A stretch of 64,000 nt of DNA, taken from Actinomycetota bacterium. Its GTDB lineage: Bacteria; Actinomycetota; Actinomycetes; JBDIAW01. Below the pieces are notes generated by a model. The model did not search any database. It saw only the letters and a list, made by a program, of their open reading frames with translations, and had not been told where the DNA came from. Positions 22,071 to 64,000 of the stretch are shown one piece after another. The translations under genes and the position numbers were made by a program. The stretch lies in contig JBDIAW010000001.1 in assembly GCA_039812585.1 (NCBI GenBank), positions 15,547 through 79,546 on the forward strand, in the 5' to 3' direction. Each line of letters starts with the position of its first letter. Within the stretch, counting starts at the first letter, position 1.

Positions 22071-22162
22071 CCACCGACTGCCCTGGTAAAAAGTCTGGGG
22101 GAATACCGCCGAACGGTATTCCCCCAGACTTTTTCATTGAACTACTCAGCGTGGGGCGGGCC

Positions 22163-37161: not shown

Positions 37162-38852
37162 TTCCCCCAGTTGAGGCCTCCACTCAGCTTGCACCTGACC
37201 CCGATGAGCAGCGCCAGCTCCTCCGTTCGAGCACCATCATGGCCACTGGCACCGTCATCTCCCGAATAACCGGCTTTGTCCGAGACACTCTGATCATCGT
37301 GGCAGCTCTGGGTAATGACAAACTCAGCGATGCTTTTCGCATCGCGCAAACCCTGCCGACCATGTTCTACATCCTCATGGTGGGCGGAGTCATCAACGCC
37401 GTGTTCGTCCCTCAAATCGTGCGGGCTTTGAAAACCCACCCCGACGGAGGAAGCGCCTACCTCGACCACCTCCTCAGTCTCACCGGAGGTGTGTTGCTCC
37501 TGCTCACCGTCGGAGTTACCCTCGCTGCCCCCGTGCTGGTGCCCTTGTGGACCGACTGGCAGGTCCAGTCCGATATTCATGTGGCGGTCGTCTTAGCCTA
37601 TTGGAGCCTGCCGCAGATTTTTTTCTACGGCTACACCTCAGTGCTCAGTCAGGTTCTCAATGCCCGCAGGCTGTTCGGCCCGATGACGTGGGCTCCCATT
37701 GCCAGCAACCTCATGGTGATTGCCACCGGCACAATCTTCATGGCCACCGTGGGTTCCATCGACAAGTCTCAACCCACTAGCGTACCCTCACACGGCATTC
37801 TCATTCTCGGGGCAGGCACCCTACTGGCAGCGGTAGTACAAACCTTGGTGCTCCTGCCACCGCTGTACCGCAGCGGTTACCGCTACCGCCCTCGTTGGAA
37901 TCGGCATACCACCGAGGACGGCAAAATCCTGGAGTTGGCGCGGTGGACCATCCTGTTCGTGCTGAGCAATCAGCTGTGTTACTTGGTCATCACTCGAGTG
38001 GGTACCCGGGTAACGGAACTGGGTCAGACCCTCAACGGTGGGGCTTTTGGTTACGGATTTTCCGCCTACACCAACGCCAGCATGATGATGATCGTGCCGC
38101 ACTCCATCGTCACCGTTTCTCTGGTCACTGCCCTACTTCCCCGTATGAGCAGCGCTGCCCTCGAGGGCGACCGTAATCATCTGCGCGAGCACCTCAGTCA
38201 GGGACTGCGCTGGTCTGCAGTATTGCTCATCCCCACCTCGATTGTTTTCCTCACGCTGGGACCCACGATAGGGCGGGCACTCTACGGGCATTTCATCGGC
38301 TTGGAAGGCTCCACTTACGTGGGATACATCCTGTCCATGATGAGCCTGGGCCTGGTGGCTTTCTCGGCACAGTATCTGCTCCTGCGGGGTTTCTACGCGC
38401 AAGAGGACACCCGTACTCCTTTTTTTATTAACCTGGTCATCACCGGACTTAACAGCGCCGGCGTAATGATTGCCTACCTCTGCCTGCCGCTGCAGTGGGT
38501 GAGCGTGGGCATGGCTGCCGCGTTTTGTGTGGCGTACGGTGTCGGGGTGGTAGTCAGTTTTCTGGTGCTACGTCAGCGTCTCGAGCATCTCCAGGGTCGG
38601 CGCATCCTCAACTCGTACACCCGCCTGTTCGCGGCCAGCCTCACGGCGGGGGGGGTAGCGGTGGGTGTTGCGCAGGTGATGCGTCACTGGTGGGGAGTGA
38701 GCGTGGCGGCCTCGTTTGCCACTTTATTGGTGAGCGGAGGCTTAACCCTGGTTCTTTCCCTCATGGGGGCCTCGCTACTCCACGTTCCCGAGGTGAACCA
38801 GTTTTCCCGCGCTATGCGCCTTGGCCTGCCAAGTCGCACCCTTTCTGACTGA
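37158..38852 (+). CDS. murJ: Lipid II flippase MurJ (MviN)
   Basis: The 564-aa product has 14 TM helices and the N-terminal 'TGTVISRITGFVRDTLI' MurJ motif. Its ATG overlaps the upstream stop (ATGA). Confidence 0.9.
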   Translation: MIPPVEASTQLAPDPDEQRQLLRSSTIMATGTVISRITGFVRDTLIIVAALGNDKLSDAFRIAQTLPTMFYILMVGGVINAVFVPQIVRALKTHPDGGSAYLDHLLSLTGGVLLLLTVGVTLAAPVLVPLWTDWQVQSDIHVAVVLAYWSLPQIFFYGYTSVLSQVLNARRLFGPMTWAPIASNLMVIATGTIFMATVGSIDKSQPTSVPSHGILILGAGTLLAAVVQTLVLLPPLYRSGYRYRPRWNRHTTEDGKILELARWTILFVLSNQLCYLVITRVGTRVTELGQTLNGGAFGYGFSAYTNASMMMIVPHSIVTVSLVTALLPRMSSAALEGDRNHLREHLSQGLRWSAVLLIPTSIVFLTLGPTIGRALYGHFIGLEGSTYVGYILSMMSLGLVAFSAQYLLLRGFYAQEDTRTPFFINLVITGLNSAGVMIAYLCLPLQWVSVGMAAAFCVAYGVGVVVSFLVLRQRLEHLQGRRILNSYTRLFAASLTAGGVAVGVAQVMRHWWGVSVAASFATLLVSGGLTLVLSLMGASLLHVPEVNQFSRAMRLGLPSRTLSD

Positions 38853-38945
38853 GCTGTCACTCATGAACGGAAGGGAATCTTCGGTTCATCGGCTAGGTTG
38901 AACGGCGAGACAGACCCTCCCCTCTTGTCCTTCTCTAGGAGCCTC

Positions 38946-39869
38946 ATGACCATCCATCCCGTAGCCATCATTGGTTCAGGGCCGGCGGGATACACCGCAG
39001 GTCTCTACACCGCCCGCGCCAACCTTTCCCCCGTGGTGATCGAAGGGTCGGTTACCTCAGGTGGGGCGTTGATGAACACCACCGAAGTGGAAAACTTTCC
39101 CGGTTTTCGGGAACCCATCATGGGACCTGAACTCATGCAGGCTATGAGGGACCAGGCTGAACGGTTTGGAGCGCAATTGCTCAGCGACGATGTAGTCAGC
39201 ACCGACCTCACCGGCCCAACGAAAACTCTCACTATGGGAAGCGGCCAAACTCTCCAAGCCGCCAGCATCATCCTCGCCATGGGGTCGAGCTACCGTGAGC
39301 TCGGATTGCCGCGTGAAAAGGAGTTCTCCGGACGCGGTGTGTCCTGGTGTGCCACATGCGATGGCTTTTTCTTCCGCGATCAAGACATCGCCGTAGTCGG
39401 CGGCGGGGATTCAGCTATGGAGGAAGCTACCTTCCTCACCAAGTTTGCCCGCAGCGTCACCGTCATCGTCCGAAGAGACCAGCTACGCGCCAGCCACATT
39501 ATGCAGCAGCGAGCCCAGTCCAACCCGAAGATACGTTTCACGTGGAACGCTCAAGTCACCGCCTTACAGGGTGATGATCGCCTCAGTGGTATTACGGTTA
39601 CCACCACCTCTGGGGAAGTAACACAAATACCGGTAACAGGATTGTTCATCGCCATCGGCCATGATCCCAGGAGTGCAATCGTTGCGGGGCAGGTGGACCG
39701 AGACTCAGAGGGATACATTCTGGTGGAGGGTCGCAGTACCCGCACCAACGTATCAGGGGTATTTGCCTGCGGTGATGTGGTCGATCACACTTATCGCCAG
39801 GCCATCACCGCGGCCGGCAGTGGGTGCAGTGCTGCCCTCGACGCCCAGAGGTATCTCGAGCAGCTGTAG
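38946..39869 (+). CDS. trxB: Thioredoxin reductase
   Basis: '[16 protein letters not shown]' is the FAD-binding motif, 'WCATCDGF' the redox CxxC and '[13 protein letters not shown]' the NADPH site. Confidence 0.9.
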
Positions 39870-39949: not shown

Positions 39950-40282
39950 ATGGCAACCCTGACCATTACTGACTCCACTTTTTCCACAGAAGTACTCACG
40001 AGTTCTACCTCAGTCTTGGTGGATTTTTGGGCGCAGTGGTGCGGGCCCTGTCGCCAGATTGCTCCGGCATTAGAGGAGATTTCTACCGAAATGGCCGATT
40101 CGCTGGTGGTGGCCAAACTCAATATCGACGAAAACCCTCAGACAGCCGCCCAATTCGGGATTACTTCCATACCTACTATGATCCTTTTCCGTCAGGGTAG
40201 CCCTGTGCATACCATCGTTGGGGCTCAACCCAAACATGCAATCGTGCAGCAGCTTCAAACTCACCTGCTCAGTGCACATTGA
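39950..40282 (+). CDS. trxA: Thioredoxin
   Basis: 'VDFWAQWCGPCRQIAP' contains the WCGPC active site in a 110-aa product. Confidence 0.9.
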   Translation: MATLTITDSTFSTEVLTSSTSVLVDFWAQWCGPCRQIAPALEEISTEMADSLVVAKLNIDENPQTAAQFGITSIPTMILFRQGSPVHTIVGAQPKHAIVQQLQTHLLSAH

Positions 40283-40489
40283 GACGTCTGTAGTCAGTGT
40301 GGGTGGCATGATGAGCCCTTAACTACTGCTTAGGCCGCAAAAGTTCCTCCTGCCGTTAGACACAATGAGACAATTCCTTCTGGCTGATGCTCCTGAATGC
40401 CAGATTCCCGTGTGCTTAGGTAGGTGTTGTGGAATGACTCTGACTAATGCCGCAAAAACTTTGTTGTTGGACACGAAGAAAGGCTCTCG

Positions 40490-41608
40490 GTGAATTCCAC
40501 CTCCTACATGCTGGGCGACCATGGCCAAGCGGTGACAGAAATCCGTGACCGCCTCGTGGTGTTGGGCCTGTTAACGCCTCACCCCGAATCAGGCGATACT
40601 TTTGACGAGACTGTTGACACTGCAGTGCGTATTTTTCAACAGCAACGCAGTCTTACCGTGGATGGGGTTGTAGGGCCTGTCACCTTCCGCACACTTGAAG
40701 AAGCACGTTGGCGCTTGGGTGACCGGATCCTGCACAACCAAATCCACAACCCCTTGGCTGGCGACGATGTGGCGCAGTTGCAGCAACGTCTTTCTTCTAT
40801 GGGCTTCGACAGTGGACGGGTAGACGGCATCTTTGGGCCCCACACTGAGGCCGCTTTAAGAGACTTCCAAAAAAATGTCGGGATGCCCGTAGACGGCACC
40901 TGTGGTCCCACCACTTTCAAGGCGTTACAGCGTCTCTCCCGAACTGTTGTGGGAGGAAGCCCCTTAGCACTGCGAGCAGAAGAACAGTTCCATGCCTCTG
41001 GCTTAACCCCTTTAGGGAAAGTGGTCGTCCTAGACCCTGGGCATGGTGCGGATGATGCCGGCATTCTCATGGGGACGCTGGCAGAGGCCGATATCGTTTC
41101 TGATTTAGCGGCACGTATTGAGGGTCGATTGGTAGCCACAGGGATGCTGGTCTTCTTAACGAGAGGTAAGGACGGGAATCATCTAACCGACCAGCAACGT
41201 GCCCACTTTGCCAACTCTGCTGGTGCCCAATTATGTGTGTCACTCCACGTCGATCAAGATGACAACACCGTAGCTAATGGAGTGGCTACGTATTACTACG
41301 GAAACGAGAGATACTCCACCGTTTCCCCATTAGGGCAACGATTTGCAGAGCTGGTTCAACGCCACATCGTGACAGCGACCGACCTGTCCAACTGTCGAAG
41401 CCATGCCAAGACCTGGGACTTGTTGCGACTCACCACTATGCCGACGGTCCTCATTGAGGTTGGCTATCTCACCAATTCAGGTGATGCTGAGCGTTTAGCT
41501 AATCCAGCCTTTCGCGACACGGTCGCTGAAGCAATCAGCAACGCGATCGTGGCGATGTTTAACCCCTCCACTCCATCCTTCGCCGACGACGCTGTGCCAG
41601 TTGGATAA
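40490..41608 (+). CDS. cwlM: N-acetylmuramoyl-L-alanine amidase (Amidase_3) with two N-terminal peptidoglycan-binding (PG_binding_1) domains; CwlM-like
   Basis: Two repeats ('AVTEIRDRLVVLGLL...', 'DVAQLQQRLSSMGFDSGRVDGIFGPHTEAALRDFQ') precede the amidase_3 'VVVLDPGHGADDAG'. Position after trxA is conserved. Confidence 0.85.
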   Translation: MNSTSYMLGDHGQAVTEIRDRLVVLGLLTPHPESGDTFDETVDTAVRIFQQQRSLTVDGVVGPVTFRTLEEARWRLGDRILHNQIHNPLAGDDVAQLQQRLSSMGFDSGRVDGIFGPHTEAALRDFQKNVGMPVDGTCGPTTFKALQRLSRTVVGGSPLALRAEEQFHASGLTPLGKVVVLDPGHGADDAGILMGTLAEADIVSDLAARIEGRLVATGMLVFLTRGKDGNHLTDQQRAHFANSAGAQLCVSLHVDQDDNTVANGVATYYYGNERYSTVSPLGQRFAELVQRHIVTATDLSNCRSHAKTWDLLRLTTMPTVLIEVGYLTNSGDAERLANPAFRDTVAEAISNAIVAMFNPSTPSFADDAVPVG

Positions 41609-41620
41609 GGAATGCCTGCC

Positions 41621-41634
41621 GTTTCACGTGAAAC
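41621..41634. promoter_or_regulatory. parS site 1 (GTTTCACGTGAAAC), overlapping the stop codon and last 3 codons of ddl
   Basis: An exact 14-bp actinobacterial parS consensus, extended to the 18-bp palindrome ccGTTTCACGTGAAACgg. The ddl C-terminal residues RFT* are encoded by it. Confidence 0.8.
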
Positions 41635-42595
41635 GGGCCCCATTAGTGCGCTGGTAAGCGTGTTCGACCAGCGCGGAGCAGAAGTCAGTTAGGGTTCGGC
41701 CCGTAGCATGAACTGCTTGCGGAAGCAGGCTGTTAATGGTCATCCCCGGAGAAACATTGACCTCCAGAAACCAGTGTTGCCCTTGAGGGTCAACGATGAA
41801 GTCGGCGCGAGAATAATCACGTAAACCCAATGCTTGATGAATGCTTTCCGCTGCCTCGGTCAAAGCAGACAGAACGTCAGGGCCAACACCGGCTGGGATG
41901 ACAAATTGACTCTCCCCCACCGTGTATCTGGCCGTGTAGTCATAGCCTTGCTGGCCAGTTTTGATTTCTACGGCCGGTAAGCTACCCCAACCAGGAACTG
42001 CGTCGATAACTGTTAATGCCACCTCTGTCCCCACGATGAACTTCTCCAAGAGCACTGCAGAGTCATAGGCAAAAGCATGGACCAGAGCACTAGTGAGTTC
42101 ATCGGCCTGCTGAACCACACTCAACCCCAGCGAAGAACCCCCCCGGTTTGGCTTTACTACTAGCGGGAATCCTAAGGACTCCACCATGGGCGTTAAGAGG
42201 TGAGCTGCTCCTAACAATTTGATGGTATCTGTTGTGATAATAAAAGCGGGGGGGGTGATCAATCCTTGAGCCTGAGCAATACTCTTGGCAGCGAACTTAT
42301 CAAAAGCTAGATGGGCGGCACCCGCAGTGCTACCCACATAGGCCAATCCCAGTGCTTCGCATAAGGTTTGGATGGCTCCATCTTCCCCCAAGCTCCCATG
42401 CAACATTGAAAAGGCAAGATTGGTTTCGAGTTCTCGGAGTTTGGGTACCAAGGAAGTATCGATATCACAGACACTCACTGTGTAACCAGCGCTTCCTAAG
42501 GCCTCGGCAACTTGGAGCCCAGATTGTAGGGAAATCTCCCGCTCGTGAGACAAACCACCAGCGAGTACTGCAATTTTTAGGTTGGAGGTGGTCAT
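41624..42595 (-). CDS. ddl: D-alanine--D-alanine ligase
   Basis: The N-terminus 'KIAVLAGGLSHEREISLQSG' and an ATP-grasp C-terminal region 'ADFIVDPQGQHWFLEVNVSPGMT' are present. Confidence 0.85.
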   Translation of the reverse strand: MTTSNLKIAVLAGGLSHEREISLQSGLQVAEALGSAGYTVSVCDIDTSLVPKLRELETNLAFSMLHGSLGEDGAIQTLCEALGLAYVGSTAGAAHLAFDKFAAKSIAQAQGLITPPAFIITTDTIKLLGAAHLLTPMVESLGFPLVVKPNRGGSSLGLSVVQQADELTSALVHAFAYDSAVLLEKFIVGTEVALTVIDAVPGWGSLPAVEIKTGQQGYDYTARYTVGESQFVIPAGVGPDVLSALTEAAESIHQALGLRDYSRADFIVDPQGQHWFLEVNVSPGMTINSLLPQAVHATGRTLTDFCSALVEHAYQRTNGARFT

Positions 42596-43914
42596 GGCAT
42601 GCTCACATTAGGGTTGTCGGACTGGCGCCATTGAGGTTTGCTTTGGGTAGGTCCAAGGATATGTCGAAGCTCTAATTCCTCATTGACCACACCAGCTAAC
42701 CTTCGCACTCCTTCGCGTAATTGATCCACTGGAGGGAAGCAGTAAGAGAGACGCAAACTGCTTTCACCCAACACTCGCCCTGCGCCGGAGTAGAAAGCGC
42801 TGCCCGGAACATAAGCAACCCTTGCATTCAATGCGCGAGGCAGCATTAATGCTGAATCGATCCCCATGGGAAGGTTAACCCACACATAAAACCCGCCCTG
42901 AGGAACTGTCCAGTGCACTCCTTCAGGCATGGCTGCCGTCAGGGTTTCAATCACCGCATCACGCCGCTCCCGATAAATATTGCGATACGAGGTGATCTGT
43001 TGCTGCCAATCAAACTCCTGTAAATAGGTGCAGACAACTGTCTGGGCCAAAGCCGAAGGACACAACATAGTCGCTTCGGCTGCCAAAATCAGCTTGTCCC
43101 TAATCACCCGAGGTGCCACGACCCATCCGACCCGAGTGCCAGGAGCAAAGGTTTTAGAAAATGATCCCAGATAGATGACGTCTTCGTTGATGGAGCGCAG
43201 AGCTGGCAAAGTTTGGTGATCAAATCCGAGCAAGCCATAAGGGTTGTCCTCAACTAATGGCACTTTAGACTGAGCGCAAAGGCTCACAATCCGCTGGCGA
43301 CGCTCCAATGTTTGAGTCACTCCGGCTGGATTGTGAAACGTGGGAATGGTGTAAACAAACTTGGGAGCTTTTCCTTGGGCTTGACATCCTGCAATAGCTG
43401 ACGACAGCGCCTCGGGATGCAGTCCTTGCTCATCCATGTCGACATGAACAACTTCTGCTTCGTATGATCTAAATGCTTGAAGGGCACCCACATACGATGG
43501 GGCTTCAGCGAGGATGACATCGCCCGGATTAATGAACACCCTCGTCAATAGATCCAAGGCCTGCTGGGACCCAGTTGTGACCACTACGTCATCTGGGTGT
43601 GCTGCTATACCCTCTACAGCCATCACGGAGACGATTTCTTCACGTAGCTGAGGGTCGCCTTGGGCCGATCCGTACTGCAAGGCATAGGTACCTCGGGTTT
43701 TAATCAGCTCGGCAATCTTGTTCCCGATCTCAGCGAGAGGGAGAGCAGAGACGTAGGGCATGCCGCCCGCTAAGGAAACAATTTCCGGCCGTGAAGCGAC
43801 GGCAAATAGGGCGCGGATCTCCGAGGCGGTCATACTTGCGGTTCGCTCAGCCAGTAGTGGGATGGTTTCACGTGAAACCATCCCACTACTGGGGTTCTCC
43901 CCCTCAACACTCAT
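42592..43914 (-). CDS. PLP-dependent aminotransferase, class I/II fold (2-aminoadipate/MocR-C-terminal-like, no HTH)
   Basis: 'TASEIRALFAV' near the N-terminus, the fold-type I core 'VVVTTGSQQALDL' and a PLP Lys region 'YLGSFSKTFAPGTRVGW' are present. The stop overlaps the ddl start (ATGA). The start is uncertain (43914 or 43881), and the 5' end contains a parS site. Confidence 0.7.
   Translation of the reverse strand: MSVEGENPSSGMVSRETIPLLAERTASMTASEIRALFAVASRPEIVSLAGGMPYVSALPLAEIGNKIAELIKTRGTYALQYGSAQGDPQLREEIVSVMAVEGIAAHPDDVVVTTGSQQALDLLTRVFINPGDVILAEAPSYVGALQAFRSYEAEVVHVDMDEQGLHPEALSSAIAGCQAQGKAPKFVYTIPTFHNPAGVTQTLERRQRIVSLCAQSKVPLVEDNPYGLLGFDHQTLPALRSINEDVIYLGSFSKTFAPGTRVGWVVAPRVIRDKLILAAEATMLCPSALAQTVVCTYLQEFDWQQQITSYRNIYRERRDAVIETLTAAMPEGVHWTVPQGGFYVWVNLPMGIDSALMLPRALNARVAYVPGSAFYSGAGRVLGESSLRLSYCFPPVDQLREGVRRLAGVVNEELELRHILGPTQSKPQWRQSDNPNVSMP
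43865..43878. promoter_or_regulatory. parS site 2 (GTTTCACGTGAAAC) inside the 5' end of the aminotransferase CDS
   Basis: An exact consensus within the 20-bp palindrome atGGTTTCACGTGAAACCat. It encodes 'MVSRET' in the ORF. Confidence 0.8.
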
Positions 43915-44045
43915 CGAGGCTCACCTTCATCTTCGCTTCGCAGCGCATCCCACCGAACGGTCGCCAGCCTACTCATCGACGAGCCGACACCCTCTTAGCA
44001 GTGCTTTTAGTACGGACGCTGCCTTTTTATCAAACAGGAGGGGGC

Positions 44046-44059
44046 GTTTCACGTGAAAC
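44046..44059. promoter_or_regulatory. parS site 3 (GTTTCACGTGAAAC), intergenic between parB and the aminotransferase
   Basis: An exact consensus within the 24-bp palindrome ggggcGTTTCACGTGAAACgcccc. Confidence 0.85.
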
Positions 44060-44086
44060 GCCCCCTCCTGTTTGATAAAAAGTGTC

Positions 44087-45145
44087 CTAAAACACCGCTG
44101 GTGATCTTGTTTCTTCAGAAGTGCCTTGGCGAAGATCGACAACCTCGGGCGAGGATCGCTCCATACGACGTCCAGGCAGCGAAGCCACTAATTGGGGGTC
44201 TAAGATACCTAAGATTCGTTCGAGATCATCTAGGGTGGCAAACTCAATGGCTACTTTTCCTTTGTGTCGACCTAAATCAACTTTCACACGGGTCTCTAGG
44301 TGGGTGGAGAGTCGCTCAGCAATTTCCACCAAGCGGGGCGATACTGGACGATGAGTCCTGTTCGATGAAGGGTGCTCGACTTCCTCCTCATGAGAAAGGG
44401 TAGCTAACTCCTCCACGGCTCGAACGGATAAACCCTCCGCTACAATGCGATCAGCAACCTCTTCTTGGCGCTTTTCGCCGTCAAAGGCCAACAACGCCCG
44501 GGCATGTCCTGCCGTGAGGACACCAGCAGCAACTTTTCGCTGGACCGAGGGAGGGAGCTTGAGTAATCGAAGTGTATTACTGATTTGCGGGCGGGATCGG
44601 CCAATACGCTGAGCGAGTTCCTCGAGGGAACAGGAAAAATCATTAAGCATTTGATCGTAAGCTGCGGCCTCCTCTAATGGGTTCAGGGGACTGCGATGCA
44701 AGTTCTCAAGCAATGCGTCGCGTAGCATGCTGTGATCTTCAGTATCCCTCACAATTGCGGGCAAATGGGTAAAGCCGGCTTGTTGAGCAGCCCGCCAACG
44801 CCTCTCTCCCATCACCAGCTCATATTGGCCATCCTCGACCCGGCGTACCACTACCGGCTGGAGCAGACCTACTTCTTTCAATGAGTGCACCAACTCTGCT
44901 AAGTCATCTTCATTGAAAACCTGCCTAGGTTGCCTAGCATTGGGCCGCACACTTTTAATGGGCAATTCTGCGAAATGCCCACCCACGGGCTCATCCAGGA
45001 CAGGTTCTAACCGGGGAGGTTTTTCCGGAATCAACATGTCGACGGGGCTCGACTCGTTAGTCCGATTGGTGGTTTCATGAGTGGGTGGCACCACCGGTAT
45101 GAGGGCGCCCAGGCCTCGGCCTAACCCTCTGCGTCGTTCGGTCAC
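44087..45145 (-). CDS. parB: Chromosome partitioning protein ParB
   Basis: The ParB box 'GERRWRAA' is present, with an HTH region and the N-terminus '...RGLGRGLGALIP'. Confidence 0.9.
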   Translation of the reverse strand: MTERRRGLGRGLGALIPVVPPTHETTNRTNESSPVDMLIPEKPPRLEPVLDEPVGGHFAELPIKSVRPNARQPRQVFNEDDLAELVHSLKEVGLLQPVVVRRVEDGQYELVMGERRWRAAQQAGFTHLPAIVRDTEDHSMLRDALLENLHRSPLNPLEEAAAYDQMLNDFSCSLEELAQRIGRSRPQISNTLRLLKLPPSVQRKVAAGVLTAGHARALLAFDGEKRQEEVADRIVAEGLSVRAVEELATLSHEEEVEHPSSNRTHRPVSPRLVEIAERLSTHLETRVKVDLGRHKGKVAIEFATLDDLERILGILDPQLVASLPGRRMERSSPEVVDLRQGTSEETRSPAVF

Positions 45146-46443
45146 TAGTTTTCCTCTCGGGTTGTCGGAGAAAGTGCATGGCTAAATTCGTTGGCAGCTT
45201 GCATGTAACACCATGTGCCTGTTGATGTGGGGTCGTAGGTCAAGACTGTTTGCCCGTGACTGGGTGCTTCGGAGATACGTACCGAACGAGGAATAACTGT
45301 TTTAAGCACTGAATCATTGAAGTGTCCTCGCACCTCATCGGTCACCTGGGCGGCTAGACGGGTGCGGCTATCAAACATTGTCAACAAAATGGCGGAAATC
45401 TCCAATTGTGGATTGAGATGCTTCTGGATCATGTCGATATTTTGCAGCAATTGCCCCAAACCTTCTAGCGCGTAATATTCGCACTGAATAGGTATGAATA
45501 CTTCAGTAGCTGCCACGAGTGCATTGATGGTGAGCAGGCCCAGGCTGGGTGGGCAGTCAATAAACACATAGTCAGGTAAGGTTTCCCCCAACTTTCGCTG
45601 CTCGGCGAGATAGTCATCCAAAGCCTTGCGAAGTCGTAGCTCCCGAGCTACCACGGGAACCAATTCGATCTCAGCCCCTGCCAAGTCAATAGTCGCGGGT
45701 ACCACACGCATCGAGGGGAAGAATGGAACTGGATGCACCACCTCACTCAGGGGCTTCCCACCAATGAGTACCTCATAAATGCCCTCTGTACCCGGCGCAT
45801 GGTCAACCCCCAATGCGGTGGAGGCATTTCCTTGCGGGTCAAGATCGATAACGAGCACCTGGGCTCCCTGAGCGGCTAAGCCCGCTGCAACATTGACCGT
45901 ACTGGTGGTTTTCCCTACTCCACCTTTTTGATTGGCAACAGAAACCCTTCGCACGTGAGAGTGGCGAGCCAGAGGTGGCATGTGGGGTAAAAGTTCGATC
46001 GGGCTCGTGGATTCTTCCGGAGCAGCCACTCCTGGATACTCCACGGGATCAGATTCTTGGGGTTGAGGTGAAAGTTCTACAGCGATGGGTTGCTCAAGGA
46101 TCGATGATGGCTCGGTGATTGCCTCCGCCTCGTCTCTGAGTAATTCGCCCTCCCTCATCAGGGATGCTGGCTCGGGCAAATCGGCTGGAGTCGCTGAGTA
46201 GGAGTCATCACGTAAATCGAGCACCAAGTTGGTTTGGCTCGCAGTAGGCCAACCCAGCCCGGATACCTGCTGAATCAATGGCCAAGACGATCCTGCGTGA
46301 TCATGTGTGGCCCAACCGACCGAGCAAAAGCTAGGTGTCATGTACTGGCCAGACGAGATGACGGATAAAGAAGATTTTGTTTCTGTGCTGACGTGGTTCA
46401 TCGCTACCTTCCTGATAGTCCTACAGTCCGCACCTTGTGTCAC
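45145..46443 (-). CDS. parA: Chromosome partitioning ATPase ParA (Soj) with a long N-terminal extension
   Basis: The deviant Walker A 'KGGVGKTTSTVN' is at about residue 175 of 432. The core after that is a typical ParA. The start codon is uncertain. Confidence 0.85.
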   Translation of the reverse strand: MTQGADCRTIRKVAMNHVSTETKSSLSVISSGQYMTPSFCSVGWATHDHAGSSWPLIQQVSGLGWPTASQTNLVLDLRDDSYSATPADLPEPASLMREGELLRDEAEAITEPSSILEQPIAVELSPQPQESDPVEYPGVAAPEESTSPIELLPHMPPLARHSHVRRVSVANQKGGVGKTTSTVNVAAGLAAQGAQVLVIDLDPQGNASTALGVDHAPGTEGIYEVLIGGKPLSEVVHPVPFFPSMRVVPATIDLAGAEIELVPVVARELRLRKALDDYLAEQRKLGETLPDYVFIDCPPSLGLLTINALVAATEVFIPIQCEYYALEGLGQLLQNIDMIQKHLNPQLEISAILLTMFDSRTRLAAQVTDEVRGHFNDSVLKTVIPRSVRISEAPSHGQTVLTYDPTSTGTWCYMQAANEFSHALSPTTREEN

Positions 46444-46452
46444 GGTCGTCTC

Positions 46453-47073
46453 TTAATGGGCATGACGCTGATAAACAACCACATTAACCGGTTGATCGTA
46501 AATATCCTTCGCCACTTGTAATCTACATGCACCGCTGGCAGATAGAGCTTTATCCACCAGTACCGCTTCAATTTCTTGCTCGGCACTTGATCCTTTAAGA
46601 GCTAGGAGGTGGCCGTTGGGCTTGAGGAGGTGGGCTGTGTGACGAATCAGAACCGGCATTGGAGCTACGGCCCTGGCGGTTACATAGTCAAAACGTTGAT
46701 GGTGCACATTTTCGCTCCGGGCGTTGACCACCTGTGCACGTGAAAGAGCGAGCTCATCAATCACCTCGCGAAGGAATAAACAACGCTTCGCAATGGAATC
46801 TATACACGTCACTGACACATCGGGACGAATAATGGCGATCACCAAGCCAGGAAGTCCCGCGCCTGAGCCTACGTCAGCAATGATTGAATGAGTCGGTAGT
46901 AGGGGGGCCAAAGCAGCGCAGTTGGCAATGTGACGCGGCCACAATCTGTCCAGTTCGCTAGGCCCGATAAAGCCTCGCCGCTGGGCTACGTCGGCGAGCA
47001 ATTGGGCATAGCGCCTCAGTAGTTCTGCCCTAGGCCCCGGGCAGATGAGGTCAGAGGGGTCGCTATCTTTCAT
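46453..47073 (-). CDS. rsmG: 16S rRNA (guanine527-N7)-methyltransferase RsmG (GidB)
   Basis: The SAM motif 'DVGSGAGLPGLVIAI' is present, and synteny is conserved. Confidence 0.9.
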   Translation of the reverse strand: MKDSDPSDLICPGPRAELLRRYAQLLADVAQRRGFIGPSELDRLWPRHIANCAALAPLLPTHSIIADVGSGAGLPGLVIAIIRPDVSVTCIDSIAKRCLFLREVIDELALSRAQVVNARSENVHHQRFDYVTARAVAPMPVLIRHTAHLLKPNGHLLALKGSSAEQEIEAVLVDKALSASGACRLQVAKDIYDQPVNVVVYQRHAH

Positions 47074-47107
47074 CGATGGTTCGGAGCTACCGAAGTAGGG
47101 ATAACGC

Positions 47108-47121
47108 GTTTCACGTGAAAC
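47108..47121. promoter_or_regulatory. parS site 4 (GTTTCACGTGAAAC), intergenic between jag and rsmG
   Basis: An exact consensus within the 18-bp palindrome gcGTTTCACGTGAAACgc. Confidence 0.85.
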
Positions 47122-47124
47122 GCT

Positions 47125-47718
47125 CTAGGAGTTCGCTGGCAAGATAACAACGTAGCGATCTGGCTCCGTACCTTCAGATTCACTCACCAACCCCGAAGCA
47201 GCCACTACATCATGGACGACTTTGCGCTCAAAGGGAGTCATGGGATCAAGGCGATACTTAGTGGCACTGGATTGGACCGAGGCAATCGCTTCGTGCGTCA
47301 CCCGGGTGATTTCCTCGCGCCGGTCTTTGCGATAGTCGGCGATATCAAGCATTAACCCTGATCGATGGCCTGTTTTAACATGGACAGCTAAGCGAGTGAG
47401 TTCTTGGAGAGCCTCTAATCCTTTGCCGTCCTCGCCTACCAAATCATCTAATCCCTCCCCCACAATGGCTACTGATGAGCGCTCCCCTTCGACATCCATA
47501 TCAATATCACCATCAAGGTCAGCAATATCTAGTAGGCCTTCGAGGTAGTCAGCGGCAATTTCTCCCTCACGCTCCAACAAGGCTAGGTTTGGACCGTTCT
47601 GATCATCACCTGTGACTGTTTGTAATGTTGCCTCGTTGTCTTTTGTCTCCCCCATGGAAGGGTCGCTTTCTACTCGGCTAGATGAGGCAAGATCGGCGGG
47701 TGGAAGTGATTGGTCCAT
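47125..47718 (-). CDS. jag: Jag/SpoIIIJ-associated RNA-binding protein (KH + R3H domains)
   Basis: An acidic N-terminus precedes the C-terminal R3H 'LDPMTPFERKVVHDVVAASG'. Confidence 0.85.
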   Translation of the reverse strand: MDQSLPPADLASSSRVESDPSMGETKDNEATLQTVTGDDQNGPNLALLEREGEIAADYLEGLLDIADLDGDIDMDVEGERSSVAIVGEGLDDLVGEDGKGLEALQELTRLAVHVKTGHRSGLMLDIADYRKDRREEITRVTHEAIASVQSSATKYRLDPMTPFERKVVHDVVAASGLVSESEGTEPDRYVVILPANS

Positions 47719-47774
47719 GAAAAGCCCTTTCCTTGGTTGCGAAGTCGGGGTGAGGCTAGATGTATGAGTTGAGG

Positions 47775-48767
47775 TTAACGACGTTTGCTGCGTGTCTTCT
47801 TTTTTGGTTGCTGCCGTGAGGGAGAGTCCTTCTCCTGCGGTGTGGAAGTTTCCTCAGGGCTTACTTCGGAAGACTCCTTCTCATCGCGTTGAGCTCGCTG
47901 CTGAGACGTTACCCGCGAAAGGCTAAAACGACGGATACCGGAGGACGAAGACTGGGCGCTCTTAGTCGCTTGCCGTTCAAGATAAAGTTTTTCTGCCTTA
48001 GAACCAGGTGCGGGTAGACGGTGAATCACCACCATTTGCTGTCCCAATGACCACAGGTTGGTGGTCAACCAGTAAACGAGAACACCAATAGGAAAAACAA
48101 AGCCGGAAAGACCGAAAATAATCGGCATCACATACATCATTATTTTTTGCTGTTGAGCAAACGATCCCGTTAAAGCAGCTTCAGGCATATTCTTCATGAT
48201 GAGTTGCCGCTGCTGGAAGAACGTAGAAGCCGTCATAGTAACGATCAGAGTGGCGGCTACAATCTTGGCTGATAAAGAGTGAGTTTGAGTAAAAGTATCA
48301 AAAAGTTTAGCCCCAAAAAGGTGCGCATCTAAAGCCTGAGTTACTTTTTCGTGAGTCATGAAACCACGTGGATGGTTTTGTGATATACCCTTCAACACCA
48401 TAAATAAAGCAAAGAAGAACGGAGACTGAGCTAAAAGTGGTAGGCAGCTCGTGAAGGGGTTTGCTTTCCTTTCCTTATAGAGTTCCATTAATTTTTGACT
48501 TTGTAGCTGCCGATCATGTTTATATTTTTGTTGGATTTTTTTCACCTCAGGCTGAATAAGCTGCATAGCTCGTTGAGCCTTAATTTGTTTAACATAAAGG
48601 GGTATCAAAAAGGTCCGGACAACGAGCACTAGGCCAATAATGCTCAGGACCCACGTGACCCCCCCATTGTTAGGTAAACCAATTGAAGTAAAAATCCAAT
48701 GGAAGGATAACATGATAAAGGAAACCAATTTATACAATGGCTCCATGAGAAAATGAAGATTATCCAT
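47775..48767 (-). CDS. yidC: Membrane protein insertase YidC
   Basis: TM helices, the conserved 'PFTSCLPLLAQSPFFFALF' region and a basic C-terminal tail are present. GC is lower than the genome average. Confidence 0.9.
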   Translation of the reverse strand: MDNLHFLMEPLYKLVSFIMLSFHWIFTSIGLPNNGGVTWVLSIIGLVLVVRTFLIPLYVKQIKAQRAMQLIQPEVKKIQQKYKHDRQLQSQKLMELYKERKANPFTSCLPLLAQSPFFFALFMVLKGISQNHPRGFMTHEKVTQALDAHLFGAKLFDTFTQTHSLSAKIVAATLIVTMTASTFFQQRQLIMKNMPEAALTGSFAQQQKIMMYVMPIIFGLSGFVFPIGVLVYWLTTNLWSLGQQMVVIHRLPAPGSKAEKLYLERQATKSAQSSSSGIRRFSLSRVTSQQRAQRDEKESSEVSPEETSTPQEKDSPSRQQPKKKTRSKRR

Positions 48768-48773
48768 GTTTTC

Positions 48774-49103
48774 CTAACTAACAGTGTTGGCTGTGGTTGT
48801 CTTGCCTGGACGAGATTTTACAGGATCGAATCCACCATCGGAAAAAGGGTTACACCGTACTAATCTCCACGCAGTACGGACTCCCCCACTCCACAACCCG
48901 TATTCCACGAAAGACTGGCGCGCATAGGAAGAGCAGGAGGGGTAGTACTTACAACGAGGCCCCAAAAGGGGTGAAATCAGACGTTGATAAACAACAATCA
49001 CACCGACCACCCAGTAATGAGGCCTCATGAGCTTCCAGCCATTCCTAGGAGGGGAAATCTCCTGGGAATGGCTAGGCACGTCACTCTCTTTACGGTGTTC
49101 CAT
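48774..49103 (-). CDS. yidD: Membrane protein insertion efficiency factor YidD
   Basis: 'YQRLISPLLGPRCKYYPSCSSYARQ' is the YidD signature. The true start is probably an internal Met, so the product is shorter than the tracked ORF. Confidence 0.8.
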   Translation of the reverse strand: MEHRKESDVPSHSQEISPPRNGWKLMRPHYWVVGVIVVYQRLISPLLGPRCKYYPSCSSYARQSFVEYGLWSGGVRTAWRLVRCNPFSDGGFDPVKSRPGKTTTANTVS

Positions 49104-49494
49104 GACGTGTCCGAAGAGAACTGGTGGTCACCAGCTTGCGCATGGTGGCTTCGAGAGCGGTGCTGAGTTGAAGGTAACTGGCCTGTGCCGCCGCTGGGTT
49201 GGCGCGTATCACGAGTAGGTGAACAGGTGGCAACAGGGGCCTAGACTGCCTCACCCACGACCGGAGACGCCTCTTCACCCGATTGCGTACTACTGCGTTG
49301 CCTACCGACTTACTGACGATAAACCCCACGTGGACGGATTCGAAGGACTCATCCGACTGGCTGGGTGTTGAGCAGGAAGCGCCAGAAGGGTGAGCAAACA
49401 CACTGATATAGCGATGGTGGGCCGACCAGCGTTTTTCACGAAACACCAGGCTGAAGTCTGAGGACTTAGTCAGGCGGTGCACACGAGGCAACAT
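49090..49494 (-). CDS. rnpA: Ribonuclease P protein component
   Basis: 'MLPRVHRLTKSSDFSLVFR' has the RnpA-like basic RNR motif region 'VVRNRVKRRLR'. Confidence 0.85.
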   Translation of the reverse strand: MLPRVHRLTKSSDFSLVFREKRWSAHHRYISVFAHPSGASCSTPSQSDESFESVHVGFIVSKSVGNAVVRNRVKRRLRSWVRQSRPLLPPVHLLVIRANPAAAQASYLQLSTALEATMRKLVTTSSLRTRHGTP

Positions 49495-49544
49495 AGTCCC
49501 ACTATTCCTACCGGAAAGATCTCCATAAAAGCTGGCAGGAGTTG

Positions 49545-49682
49545 TTAGGCAGAAAGCTTTTTACGCCCTTTACTGCGTCGCAGAGCCAAAATCGCCCTGC
49601 CTGCTCGGGTGGCCATCCGTTGGCGGAAGCCGTGAGTCTTCGCGCGACGACGGTTGTTGGGTTGAAAGGTCCGCTTGGACAC
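49545..49682 (-). CDS. rpmH: 50S ribosomal protein L34
   Basis: '(V/M)[44 protein letters not shown]' uses a GTG start preceded by AAGGAG. The tracked ORF extends to 49739. Confidence 0.9.
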
Positions 49683-49874
49683 GGTGGTCTCCTTAGGACA
49701 AGCAGGGGTGGTGTCGACCCGGTTGTCTCGACTCATCACACGATGCGAGGCAACTGGACCATTAAGCAGGCAAAAATGACACAGCTCACCATGAGCTTAT
49801 CGGACGCTGTCTACTAAGAAGGGGCATCGCCGGCCGGTCCACTCCCCCGTGCCCACTGCCACTTTCCCCACCCT

Positions 49875-50086
49875 GTGGACAACCACTTGCCTGATTGCTG
49901 CGGATTAGCTACGTTCACACCTGTCTGCAACGTGGTGACCGATACCTTCCTGTCGGGTAGTTTTGGTTGATCTGTAGGAAAAACCAGCGGTACGACACCT
50001 AGGCACGCAGGGTGACGAGAAATTCTTCCCAGCCCTGAAGTCCTCAGGGTCATTGTCCCCAACTTGTGGATAACCTTGTGGACAAC
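49875..50086. promoter_or_regulatory. DnaA-box cluster in the dnaA promoter region (rpmH-dnaA intergenic)
   Basis: tgtggacaa (49875-49883), tgtggataa (50066-50074) and tgtggacaa (50078-50086) are reverse complements of TTGTCCACA/TTATCCACA. A weaker box ttgtcccca lies near 50053. Confidence 0.6.
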
Positions 50087-50126
50087 CGGCGTGTGAGTGA
50101 GCCTCCGATCTGAAGGGAAGGGCCCA

Positions 50127-51584
50127 ATGACTCAAGGTTCTGAAGCCACTCAAGTGTCGTTTTCTCAAGCGTGGGATGCAACCATCGAAGCGTTGGCAGG
50201 TGATAACTTCCCTGCGCAATACCGAGCTTTTTTACGACTAGCCCAACCCATGGGGCTCATTGACGACACTGCACTGATCCGTGTGCCAGACAATTTCACT
50301 AAAAACAAACTGGAAACAGATCTAAGGGAGTACCTTACTTCTGCATTGGCCAAGACACTGGGCCATCCCGTGCGCTTGGCTGTCACAGTCGATGACTCCC
50401 CTACGCGATTCTCGCCTGTTTTAGAGGTTTGTCAGTCAGATGGACTAACAGACAAGCCCCTACCGACTCCCCTACCTAGTGACGATGATGATCCACCTAC
50501 TTTGCCTTTCACCACTCTCGATAGCGTTCCCACCCCTGACCCTGGTGACTCATCCCAACTGAACCCGCGCTACATCTTCGACACCTTTGTGATCGGCGCC
50601 AGTAATCGTTTCGCTCACGCTGCTGCTATTGCTGTTTCGGAGGCGCCTGCTAAAGCCTATAATCCATTGTTTATTTATGGTGATTCTGGTTTAGGTAAAA
50701 CCCACCTTTTACACGCTATCGGATACTACGCACAAAGCCTCTATCCAGGGATACAGGTGAGATACGTTAGTTCTGAAGAGTTCACTAATGACTTTATTAA
50801 CTCTATTCGTGATGACCGAGCTTCGGTTTTCCAACGACGCTATCGTGATTTAGACATTCTTTTAGTGGATGATATTCAGTTCTTAGAGAATAAAGAACGA
50901 ACCCAGGAAGAATTCTTCCATACCTTTAATACTTTGTACAATGCCAACAAACAAATAGTGATCTCTAGTGATCGGGCTCCCAAACAGCTCGTCACGTTGG
51001 AGGATCGGCTCCGTAGTCGATTTGAGTGGGGACTGATCACTGATGTCCAACCACCAGATTTGGAGACACGTATAGCTATCCTGCGCAAAAAGGCCGTTCA
51101 GGAACAGTTAAACGTCCCTGCTGAAGTCCTAGAATATATTGCCTCTAAAATCAGTACAAATATAAGAGAGTTAGAGGGTGCTCTTATTAGAGTGACGGCT
51201 TTCGCTAACCTCAATCAGCAAGGGGTGGATTTATCGCTAGCGGAGATCGTCCTCAAGGATCTCATTCCCGACGAGGATGGCCCCGAGATCACCGTAGCGA
51301 CTATCATTGCTCAGACTGCTGCTTATTACGCTCTATCCATGGATGATTTATGTGGAGCCTCACGCTCCAGAACCTTGGTTCAAGCCCGACAAATTGCTAT
51401 GTATCTGTGTCGAGAATTGACCTCACTTTCACTACCAAAAATAGGGCAGCAATTTGGAGGTCGTGACCACACCACTGTCATGCACGCAGACCGTAAAGTA
51501 CGTCAAGAAATGAGTGAAAAACGCTCGGTTTACAATCAAGTCACTGAGCTAACCAATCGCATTAAATCCCAGGCGCGCCAATAA
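50127..51584 (+). CDS. dnaA: Chromosomal replication initiator protein DnaA
   Basis: The AAA+ Walker A '[15 protein letters not shown]', sensor motifs and the C-terminal DNA-binding '[11 protein letters not shown]' are present. An alternative GTG start lies at 50097. Confidence 0.95.
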
Positions 51585-51909
51585 TGACTAGGCATCTTCC
51601 TCCCCACCAACTCCCCTACAGGCCAGCTTGTGCACAGTCTGTGGATAAGGTTGTGGATGACTGGGGAAAACTGGGGGTCATCTGTGAGCAAAACACAACA
51701 CCAGCAGTGAAAGGCAGAAGAAATCCCCAGGTCGACACGGTTTTTCCACACCGTCCACGCAGCAGCGTCCACACCCGAATCGGGTCTTTACCAGGGAAAA
51801 TGCAGGTTTTCCCCAGAATCCACACCCCCTACTGCGACGAAGACATTTTTATCATGATGGGATTTAAGGTCATAGAAGCCACAGCGGCCCAAACGGTGAG
51901 GAGCCGACC
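51585..51909. promoter_or_regulatory. Putative oriC core (dnaA-dnaN intergenic) with DnaA boxes and an AT-rich unwinding element
   Basis: Boxes tgtggataa (51640-51648), tgtggatga (51653-51661), ttttccaca (51742-51750) and cgtccaca (~51767-51775) are present. An AT-rich stretch 'gaagacatttttatcatgatgggatttaaggtcatag' lies at ~51838-51877. Confidence 0.6.
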
Positions 51910-63329: not shown

Positions 63330-63953
63330 TTAGCGTCCCCATACGCGCACCCAGTCGACGTCGAGGGGATAGCCTGCTCCGCTGCCTAGCACCACTGTCA
63401 TTCCCTGTGCTTGGGTGTCGAAGGAGCTAAAAGTTCCCACCGGGTTCCCGCGAGGGTTGGGCACAGGATAGCCAGTGGGGGAATATTGCTGACGCAAAAC
63501 CAGGGTGTCGTCGAAATACCAGCTTATTTCTCCCGGCTTCCATAGACATCCGTACGTGTGCCACGATGAGAAATCCACTTCGCCAAGCGATGCAATGTGA
63601 TTCCCATAGGATCCAAAGTCCTCGTTGGGATCAGGCCAGTGGCCGATCCAATCGTGCAGAGTTCCGACGAAATCATGAGGGGAACGTTGCCCCGGCGAGT
63701 GATACGCCTCGAAGAAATCAATTTCAGCCCAGCGGTCATTTTTAGTCCCATCAATGTGCTGTTTTGACATTGACCAAAAACTGGGCCATCCGGTGGAAGC
63801 GATGGCTGACGGTGTGGATGGGTTGAAGCGTAAACGGGCTTCAAAATAGCCAAAGGTGAAATGCTGACCATGACCATTGCGTGCACAGGTAGTAGATAAA
63901 CCCCAATTTGCGTAGTCACGAGATTGTGTGAAGGTCAAGACACCCTGATTCAC
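63330..63953 (-). CDS. GH16-like paralog (C-terminal part; gene continues beyond window end)
   Basis: 'WAEIDFFEAY' and a C-terminal 'YPLDVDWVRVWG' are nearly identical in motif layout to the upstream copy. This is a tandem duplicate and is truncated by the window edge. Confidence 0.6.
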   Translation of the reverse strand: MNQGVLTFTQSRDYANWGLSTTCARNGHGQHFTFGYFEARLRFNPSTPSAIASTGWPSFWSMSKQHIDGTKNDRWAEIDFFEAYHSPGQRSPHDFVGTLHDWIGHWPDPNEDFGSYGNHIASLGEVDFSSWHTYGCLWKPGEISWYFDDTLVLRQQYSPTGYPVPNPRGNPVGTFSSFDTQAQGMTVVLGSGAGYPLDVDWVRVWGR

Positions 63954-64000
63954 GCGAAACTCTGAGGTTCCTAGCGTGGGCCACCCAAAGGGACGTGCTC

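Follow-up and report, generated by a model that had tools for sequence, protein, structure and literature searches.

parS sites beside an actinomycete replication origin, two of them at the centres of long perfect palindromes

We describe five parS sites around the parAB genes of an uncultured actinomycete, two of which form the centres of long perfect palindromes. The longer palindrome follows parB and folds in silico into a strong RNA hairpin, and it occupies a position at which parS sites of other actinomycetes are likewise enriched in long palindromic arms. The explanation that we favor, and that we hold to be reasonably probable as a whole, combines ordinary parS sites, a hairpin at site 3 that would terminate the parAB transcript, and an origin of the long arms by template switching. 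All positions given below refer to the window, i.e. the whole 64-kb stretch of DNA that was analyzed.

The parS sites and their setting

The window includes the replication origin region, with the minimum of the cumulative GC skew at ~50-52 kb and DnaA-box clusters at 49.9-50.1 kb and 51.6-51.75 kb. All five parS sites lie within 39.5-47.1 kb, with parA and parB among them at 44.1-46.4 kb (Table 1); the exact sites are 2.7-8.5 kb away from the DnaA-box clusters. A co-directional gene run, yidC-jag-rsmG-parA-parB, ends at parB. The best solved relatives of the encoded ParB are Spo0J (6SDK) and a ParB-parS complex (6T1F), and its GERRWRA motif was invariant in the ParB comparison.

Table 1 Features of the partition locus in the window (positions in nt)
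Feature	Position	Strand	Description
trxB parS (fifth site)	39535..39548		GTTTCACGTGGAAC, the reverse complement of GTTCCACGTGAAAC; inside trxB; encodes R-F-T-W-N
parS site 1	41619..41636		18-bp perfect palindrome, core 41621-41634; located where the convergent genes ddl and cwlM are 15 nt apart
ddl	41624..42595	-	D-Ala-D-Ala ligase family; stop codon inside parS site 1
Class I/II aminotransferase	42592..43914	-	Start at 43914 supported by comparison; operon with ddl (4-nt overlap)
parS site 2	43851..43892		42-bp perfect palindrome, core 43865-43878; aminotransferase codons 8-21 (PSSGMVSRETIPLL)
parS site 3	44023..44082		60-bp perfect palindrome, core 44046-44059; begins 4 nt past the parB stop
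parB	44087..45145	-	352 aa; Pfam ParB_N, HTH_ParB and ParB_C; GERRWRA motif
parA	45145..46443	-	ParA/Soj-type ATPase; ~160-aa N-terminal extension; start codon uncertain
parS site 4	47106..47123		18-bp perfect palindrome, core 47108-47121; jag-rsmG spacer, 1 nt past the jag stop

The original prediction of four exact copies of GTTTCACGTGAAAC around parAB was confirmed by an exact-match scan, the chance expectation being 0.00 (100 shuffles of the window). Scanning for further parS sites added a fifth, consensus-fitting copy inside trxB, which the prediction had missed. All five match the published 14-bp core GTTNCACGTGAAAC, which is part of the 16-bp consensus TGTTNCACGTGAAACA (PMC7022226), and four of the five are exact GTTTCACGTGAAAC. 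This 14-mer fits TGTTNCACGTGAAACA and is identical to the parS studied experimentally in M. smegmatis (PMC7022226). The positions of the sites, whose presence in relatives had been proposed as a check, are kept in the two nearest lineages, of which L003 (ParB 77% identical) carries sites 2, 3 and 4, and L090 (a 73% relative) carries sites 1, 2 and 3 as well as the trxB site. The consensus match, the clustering about parAB and the DnaA boxes, the canonical ParB encoded between the sites and the conservation of their positions all agree with the predicted identity: judged by these features, the five are the ordinary centromere sites (parS) of a chromosomal ParABS system next to oriC. From the sequence identity with sites that have been studied, ParB dimers would be expected to load on all five.

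Taken by itself, the parS cluster is textbook biology. It shares its core sequence with other actinobacterial clusters (M. smegmatis with 3 sites of GTTTCACGTGAAAC, C. glutamicum with 10 and S. coelicolor with 21), which likewise comprise several copies around parAB, at a few to tens of kb from oriC. Some parS sites in such clusters lie inside coding sequence, for example C. glutamicum parS1 in trpCF (PMC7083940; PMC7022226), and an exact parS between jag and rsmG, where site 4 is located, was present in 50 of 78 actinomycete loci. The window differs from the known clusters in two respects, namely that two of its sites are extended to perfect palindromes of 42 and 60 bp, and that at position ±8 the exact sites have C/G or G/C in place of the preferred T/A.

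Length and authenticity of the palindromes

Palindromes of 18-24 bp had been predicted at all four exact sites, with flank extensions of as little as 2 bp read as selection beyond the core. Neither claim was supported by measurement. The perfect palindromes at sites 1 to 4 span 18, 42, 60 and 18 bp, respectively, those at sites 2 and 3 being the longest zero-spacer perfect palindromes of the window; both of these, as well as their connection with the end of parB, had been overlooked. The short palindromes at sites 1 and 4 are unremarkable. In a survey of 265 exact parS sites from ~170 actinomycete loci, arms of at least 9 nt were found in 47 of the 265, which is about the chance level when position ±8 is taken into account. 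Selection at ±8 acts on the identity of the base (T 45%, A 2%) and not on palindromy.

As misassembly is known to arise at palindromes and the source is a MAG contig, it should be considered whether the long palindromes are fold-back errors of metagenome assembly. This we hold to be exceedingly improbable. Unique syntenic sequence flanks each palindrome on both sides, and the same feature recurs in relatives and in isolate genomes. Moreover, Logan contigs (k=31) of the same organism from four independent read sets (SRR10090775, SRR19427084, SRR10090778 and SRR10090776) break in the middle of site 3 and, at site 2, 9 nt off the centre, exactly where perfect arms of 30 and 21 nt predict breaks in a k=31 de Bruijn graph. 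Both long palindromes are genuine rather than products of assembly. The same behavior means that k-mer assemblies break precisely at parS-centred palindromes, so that actinomycete MAG contigs from near the origin tend to stop at such sites, and long palindromes of this kind are probably under-counted. An origin as a mobile or repeated element was also considered and rejected, as the arms occur nowhere else in the window and those of sites 2 and 3 are unrelated.

The hairpin after parB

Site 3 consists of a GC-rich inner stem (CAGGAGGGGGCG..CGCCCCCTCCTG), TTTGAT and A/T-rich outer arms, and has an RNA minimum free energy of -58.7 kcal/mol (z = -10.8). In the 173-nt spacer downstream of parB there is no other hairpin. 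Site 3 thus presents a stable GC-rich stem-loop after the last gene of a transcription unit. Its tail past the inner stem, TTTGATAA, holds 4 T in 8 positions; our terminator scan requires 5 and did not call it, whereas the L003 orthologue, with tail TTTTTTTAAC, was called. In L003, a 36-bp palindrome with unrelated arms stands in the same place, its 16 pairs being followed by TTTTTTT; this is the sole terminator-like match after the L003 parB and a textbook terminator. A canonical bidirectional terminator of like build occurs in the same window at 22088-22134, and structured 3' ends that lack a U-tract are common in Streptomyces Term-seq data (PMC8269248). With respect to the bidirectional or L-shaped terminators of actinomycetes, site 3 is similar in having a GC-rich stem right after the stop codon and complementary A/T-rich flanks, a build that it also shares with hairpins lacking parS after parB in eight other loci. 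It differs in that a protein-binding centromere site makes up its loop and upper stem, in its stem of 28-30 bp, which clearly exceeds that of common terminators, and in its weak U-tract (UUUGAU). Termination needs far less than the full 30-bp perfect stem. A known RNA family was rejected, as Rfam gave only sub-threshold chance matches (mir-1284 at 25 bits, the gathering score being 80).

Similar palindromes follow parB in other lineages. L090 has a 40-bp parS palindrome with, again, unrelated arms at the position of site 3; as a canonical terminator precedes it, this palindrome is not needed for termination there. In L039 and L082, two unrelated MAGs, the parS palindromes measure 32-38 bp and begin 1-2 nt past parB, with no U-rich tract after them, and in two Kribbella species the palindrome arms differ by two compensatory double changes. 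Culturable carriers of a parS palindrome after parB include Kribbella hippodromi JCM 15572 (L017, 36 bp) as well as Nonomuraea and Actinomadura strains.

In the survey, arms of at least 12 nt were found in 9 of 20 parS sites located within 300 nt after parB and in 6 of 245 elsewhere (p = 4e-8), or in 5 of 15 and 5 of 240, respectively, when the present lineage was left out (p = 7e-5); it should be noted that the survey loci are not phylogenetically independent, and these Fisher p-values are, therefore, optimistic. Furthermore, 1.6 Mb of sequence contained 77 perfect hairpins, 15 of which fall within 150 nt after parB, a region that makes up 0.8% of the total. Seven have parS at their centre and the other eight, from eight other loci, do not, which indicates that the position itself calls for a strong hairpin. 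Taken together with the enrichment of long arms, this leads us to read site 3 as a parAB terminator hairpin built around parS, which would most likely terminate the jag-rsmG-parA-parB transcript, stabilise its 3' end, or both.

parS sites within coding sequence

Site 2 was correctly placed by the original prediction in the first codons of the aminotransferase, where it encodes VSRET in the N-terminal tail. L003 and L090 carry parS at the same VSRET codons, with 14 bp palindromic. The left arm of the longer palindrome in the window creates an in-frame ATG at 43881, and the choice between this codon and 43914 as the start had been considered ambiguous. Comparison of the N-terminus across three lineages settles the matter in favor of 43914: as exactly 12 codons precede VSRET in all three, as a Shine-Dalgarno-like motif (AGGTGA or GGGAG) is found upstream and as the internal M of this genome is replaced by Q or N in the relatives, 43914 appears to be the true start and the ATG at 43881 spurious. 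The extension of site 2, in an unconstrained N-terminal tail, is specific to this lineage. Long parS palindromes are also found inside coding sequence or operons in L011, L065 and L087, and at these places, as at site 2, a terminator would be senseless. In L011 (Jiangella), parS is embedded in a 32-bp palindrome inside parB itself, in the VSRET frame. B. subtilis reportedly carries a parS inside spo0J, its parB gene, likewise a centromere site within partition-locus coding sequence; the partition-locus site of the window lies just outside parB, past the stop codon.

The arrangement of sites 3 and 2 about this start codon raises the possibility of regulation, in which ParB bound at both sites would form a roadblock that controls the cell-wall-related aminotransferase-ddl operon, with the hairpins tuning read-through from parAB. 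Site 3 lies ~130 nt upstream of the start codon and the centre of site 2 lies 43 nt downstream of it, the 12-codon spacing is identical in the three lineages, and ParB is known to repress genes adjoining parS in P. aeruginosa (PMC7022226). The conserved spacing may, however, reflect mere inheritance, a simple promoter scan of the spacer between sites 3 and 2 gave no candidate aminotransferase promoter, and in B. subtilis the loss of ParB leaves parS-adjacent genes unaffected (PMC7022226). We consider such a regulatory role improbable.

As for site 1, it does supply the last codons and the stop of ddl as predicted, CGT TTC ACG TGA reading R-F-T-stop. In L090, the ddl/cwlM junction contains a 26-bp parS palindrome that lies 46 nt past the ddl stop, and the tail residues are not conserved, and the overlap in the window thus appears to be incidental. 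The broader proposal, that protein-coding sequence is constrained by a segregation site, holds in spirit, although its best case is not ddl but the unlisted site in trxB. Among ~100 TrxB proteins that were compared, R-F-T was unique to this lineage, ~95 other actinomycete proteins having E-F-A, E-M-V and similar residues. The TGG of this site can be understood from the fact that a perfect parS in this frame would introduce a TGA stop, TGG being the closest allowed codon, and the same variant is kept in L090.

Together, ddl and the aminotransferase form a module that has parS at both junctions and is inverted relative to ~55 other actinomycete loci. That two ancestral parS copies recombined to invert the module was considered, but it is no more than a remark, since no parS separates the aminotransferase from cwlM in any of the ~55 loci that keep the ancestral order.

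Origin of the arms

The arms contain only Watson-Crick pairs, end abruptly and differ in sequence between lineages. Allowing G:U pairs on either strand lengthens no arm, which leaves selection on the arms at the RNA level alone unsupported, and allowing one mismatch adds nothing to most of the long arms. Such features fit hairpin-templated mutation starting from the parS core, and template switching has been documented to create perfect hairpins (PMC8794818, PMC7202029). We propose that the core palindrome would seed template-switch (quasipalindrome) mutations, and that the resulting palindromes would be kept where a hairpin does no harm or, as behind the last gene of a transcription unit, is useful. 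At site 3, the 14-bp ParB-binding palindrome would have grown into a stem that terminates the ParB-encoding operon itself, and site 2 would represent such an event in the aminotransferase tail. Quasipalindrome mutagenesis at the QP hotspots of E. coli likewise turns imperfect inverted repeats into perfect ones with abrupt ends, resembling site 2 when compared to its orthologues (PMC7202029, PMC8794818), but its seeding by a protein-binding palindrome was not described in the literature that we searched. When the codons of site 2 were compared by hand in the three lineages, both arms differed from the relatives, at a divergence too high for the change to be polarised. Single-protein scans for closer relatives (ParB against genome contigs, the aminotransferase against metagenome contigs) found nothing, alignment-based scans returned only relatives of at most 65% identity, and the ParB proteins of the nearest relatives, at most 77% identical, are too distant to polarise mutations.

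A template-switch origin does not by itself require a function, and the long arms could be neutral, short-lived products of replication errors around functional parS sites, with no role in transcription, that pile up after parB merely because the spacer is unconstrained. Their perfect, sharp-edged pairing that never uses G:U, the lack of similarity of the arms across three sister lineages, the separate upstream terminator in L090, the location of site 2 in coding sequence and the surplus length of the stem in the window would all suit this account. We nonetheless regard it as unlikely, since other intergenic parS sites (mostly in jag-rsmG and rsmG-parA spacers) are almost never extended (3 of 83, compared to 9 of 18 after parB), since strong hairpins unrelated to parS hold the same position in eight other loci and since in L003 the palindrome is followed by a full T7 tail.

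The strict symmetry at the DNA level could alternatively point to a function of the DNA itself, whereby a cruciform or replication hairpin modulates ParB nucleation or SMC loading, or whereby ParB keeps the palindrome in duplex form. Zero-spacer palindromes of 42 and 60 bp are long enough to extrude under supercoiling, and these two exceed all others of their kind in the window. However, ParB recognises the duplex 16-bp parS, which extrusion would destroy, 241 of the 265 surveyed sites have arms of at most 9 nt, the orthologous sites in the relatives work with 14 bp, and the literature searched offered no precedent. We thus find a DNA-level function very improbable, somewhat more so than the regulatory role considered above.

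Implications

Our search of the literature for parS in connection with cruciforms, hairpins, terminators or a location after parB yielded no earlier account of such extension. What may be new, accordingly, is the repeated reuse of a centromere palindrome, with unrelated arms, at the core of a hairpin for the transcript end, right after the gene of its own binding protein. As a generalization, which we offer tentatively although it seems quite possible, the parS that follows parB in actinomycetes would repeatedly have been built or grown into the parAB terminator hairpin, as a dual DNA/RNA element. Its core would seed the template switching from which long perfect palindromes grow, and these may in turn favor local rearrangement. 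In this dual use, parS would serve ParB as duplex DNA, and the same palindrome would serve RNA polymerase as an RNA stem. If true, selection would act on one sequence both as DNA and as RNA, and RNA polymerase termination and ParB loading would take place on the same base pairs, which bears on the interference between ParB clamps and transcription near the origin. The parS sites of these actinomycetes would then also provide a natural system for the growth of short functional palindromes into long perfect ones.

A parS cluster in the origin region

The 14-mer GTTTCACGTGAAAC occurs in the window as four exact copies, at 41621, 43865, 44046 and 47108 (none expected in 100 shuffles). It fits the parS consensus TGTTNCACGTGAAACA and equals the M. 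smegmatis parS (PMC7022226). A mismatch-tolerant scan added two positions. The first, at 39535 (one mismatch), reads GTTCCACGTGAAAC on the opposite strand and thus fits the published core GTTNCACGTGAAAC, so that five consensus-fitting sites lie inside 7.6 kb. The second (63947-63960, GATTCACGCGAAAC, two mismatches, 17 kb off the cluster) is probably a chance match, the chance expectation being about 0.1 per window. At base ±8 of the half-site, 265 parS sites from loci L003-L177 (genomes of 69% GC) showed T in 45%, C in 34%, G in 19% and A in 2%, in agreement with the 16-bp consensus; T/A at ±8 was found at 0/4 exact window sites.

The surrounding block is an actinomycete origin region (see the table), with DnaA-box clusters at 49874-50085 and 51628-51750 and the turn of the cumulative GC skew at about 50-52 kb. 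ParB contains ParB_N, HTH_ParB and ParB_C domains with an invariant GERRWRA motif, and among solved structures it is closest to Spo0J and the Caulobacter ParB-parS complex. The closest ParB proteins are all metagenomic (77%, 73% and 65% identity), and identity to named genera (Nocardioides, Kribbella, Jiangella, Actinopolymorpha) is about 60-64%. ParA has an N-terminal extension of about 160 residues ahead of the P-loop domain. GC content is 49-54% in the cwlM-dnaA block (40000-52000) versus 58-64% on either side. The dnaA-dnaN gap (51584-51913) is filled by a 109-aa ORF that is annotated as a gene on a Logan contig and for which no Pfam match was found; it contains three DnaA-box-like 9-mers (51628-51750) and probably represents oriC, not a gene.

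Features of the origin region and hairpins in the window
Feature	Position	Strand	Remark
terminator	22088-22134		canonical bidirectional intrinsic; AAAAAGTCTGGGGGAATACCG-CCGAA-CGGTATTCCCCCAGACTTTTT, perfect arms 21 nt
murJ	37158-38852	+
trxB	38898-39869	+
trxA	39950-40282	+
cwlM-type amidase	40490-41608	+
parS site 1 palindrome	41619-41636		18 bp
ddl	41624-42595	-
aminotransferase	42592-43914	-
parS site 2 palindrome	43851-43892		42 bp
parS site 3 palindrome	44023-44082		60 bp
parB	44087-45145	-
parA	45145-46443	-
rsmG	46453-47073	-
parS site 4 palindrome	47106-47123		18 bp
jag	47125-47718	-
yidC, yidD, rnpA	between jag and dnaA
dnaA	50097-51584	+
dnaN	51910-53133	+

The 77% relative (L003) carries parS between jag and rsmG, downstream of parB and within the N-terminal part of the aminotransferase; the 73% relative (L004/L005 and L090) has it after parB, in the aminotransferase N-terminus and between ddl and cwlM, together with the same trxB variant. 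Since both keep these positions, the original prediction, which had named absence from relatives as its refutation, withstood its own test. The jag-rsmG interval carries an exact parS in 50/78 actinomycete loci. The rsmG-parA spacer (46444-46452) has none in the window's lineage; a parS is present there in 56/78 other loci. Given the M. smegmatis identity, the consensus fit, the canonical ParB and the conserved positions, the parS identification was right, and the cluster is, as judged from sequence, of a familiar kind: a set of predicted centromere sites close to the origin.

The window, L003 and L090 have the aminotransferase-ddl module in inverted orientation (parB> aminotransferase> ddl> <cwlM) relative to about 55 other actinomycete loci among L010-L089 and L098-L177 (parB> <ddl <aminotransferase <cwlM). 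Both junctions of the inverted segment (41619-44082) carry parS, and no parS was found at the aminotransferase-cwlM junction of the approximately 55 loci with ancestral order.

Palindrome lengths and arms

The palindromes had been given as 18-24 bp; they measure 18, 42, 60 and 18 bp, and their most striking feature was thus missed. The only comparable perfect hairpin elsewhere in the window is the canonical terminator, between convergent ORFs 20991-22070(+) and 22163-22498(-). In a k=31 de Bruijn graph, an incoming contig stops 30 - a bases beyond the centre of a perfect palindrome with arm a, which predicts breaks at 0 for site 3 (a = 30) and 9 for site 2 (a = 21). The organism's own Logan contigs, drawn from four SRA runs, terminate precisely at the middle of site 3, and at site 2 they start 9 nt ahead of the middle; the 73% relative (a = 20) breaks at +10. 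These breaks independently confirm the arm lengths. The same offset was seen at extended parS palindromes in L001, L002, L004-L008, L090 and L094-L096. As k=31 contigs break there, such palindromes are likely under-represented in MAGs; many ParB-bearing contigs are short, ending soon after parB.

Every arm consists of Watson-Crick pairs only and ends abruptly, and allowing G:U extends none on either strand. The arm sequences are lineage-specific. Site 2, in the poorly conserved aminotransferase N-terminal tail, is extended in this genome alone, and not in L003 or the 73% relative. Such arms are what one would expect from template switching at a hairpin (PMC7202029, PMC8794818), which may have been seeded by the 14-bp parS core. 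Searches by ParB and aminotransferase found no close relative for reconstructing the event.

Overlaps with coding sequence

A perfect parS offers, on either strand alike, two open frames (VSRET, FHVK) and one with TGA (F-T-stop). The ddl C-terminus, read in the stop frame (RFT*), had been taken as constrained by parS. This does not hold: in the 73% relative the site lies 46 nt past the ddl stop and the ddl tails differ, and the overlap is the result of a shrunken spacer, with no constrained protein. In the aminotransferase, parS is read in the VSRET frame 12 codons past the start in all three lineages, and farther homologues have GSRLD-type sequence at that position. The start had been called ambiguous (43914 or 43881); the internal Met was created by the palindrome extension at site 2, and 43914 is supported because the 12-codon length is conserved, AGGTGA lies 6 nt upstream, and relatives have Q or N at the internal Met.

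The trxB site (39535-39548) lies in the stop frame, with TGG where a perfect parS would give TGA, and encodes R-F-T-W-N. Among about 100 actinomycete TrxB proteins, R-F-T is found only in the window's lineage, and this site is the clearest case of a protein sequence bent toward parS. In Jiangella anatolica (L011, 10130-10143), a 32-bp perfect parS palindrome lies within the parB N-terminal variable region, read in the VSRET frame like the window's aminotransferase site.

Hairpins after parB

We surveyed 80 parB-anchored loci (named genomes and MAGs) and 80 aminotransferase-anchored metagenomic loci. Arms were 7-9 nt in 241 of 265 exact parS sites and at least 12 nt in 15, where about 0.3-1 are expected by chance. 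The long arms occurred at 9/20 sites lying up to 300 nt past the parB stop versus 6/245 elsewhere (Fisher p = 4e-8), and at 5/15 versus 5/240 with the focal lineage removed (p = 7e-5), and it should be considered for both values that the loci are phylogenetically non-independent. Of the intergenic sites elsewhere, which lie mainly between jag and rsmG or between rsmG and parA, just 3/83 were extended, and intergenic location alone is therefore insufficient for long arms. As a control, we counted perfect hairpins (stem of at least 12 nt, loop of at most 10 nt) in 1.6 Mb: 15/77 fell in the first 150 nt past parB, a zone that makes up 0.8% of the sequence. With seven of these centred on parS and eight not, this position normally holds a strong hairpin, and parS is one recurrent core from which to build it.

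The site 3 palindrome starts 4 nt past the parB stop, and its RNA folds at -58.7 kcal/mol (z = -10.8). Its L003 orthologue has entirely different arms (CCGTGTGGCCC), a 36-bp palindrome followed by TTTTTTT, which is the only terminator-like match after that parB. In two unrelated MAGs (L039, L082) the palindrome begins 1-2 nt past the parB stop, and the arms of two Kribbella species differ by two compensatory double changes. The window's canonical terminator (AAAAAG-stem-loop-stem-CTTTTT) shares the plan of site 3, a GC-rich inner stem between outer arms rich in A/T. The site 3 tail (TTTGAT) fails a simple terminator scan; many structured 3' ends in Streptomyces Term-seq data lack a U-tract (PMC8269248). 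The stem of 30 base pairs exceeds what termination needs, and in the 73% relative a canonical terminator is followed by a 40-bp parS palindrome whose arms differ again, so that both coexist.

We found no prior description of parS as the core of long palindromes or of a terminator hairpin after parB. The arrangement appears to be an unreported variant in which parS sits at the centre of long perfect palindromes that, in the loci compared, are concentrated just past parB, and the post-parB palindrome is most likely the terminator hairpin of the partition operon.
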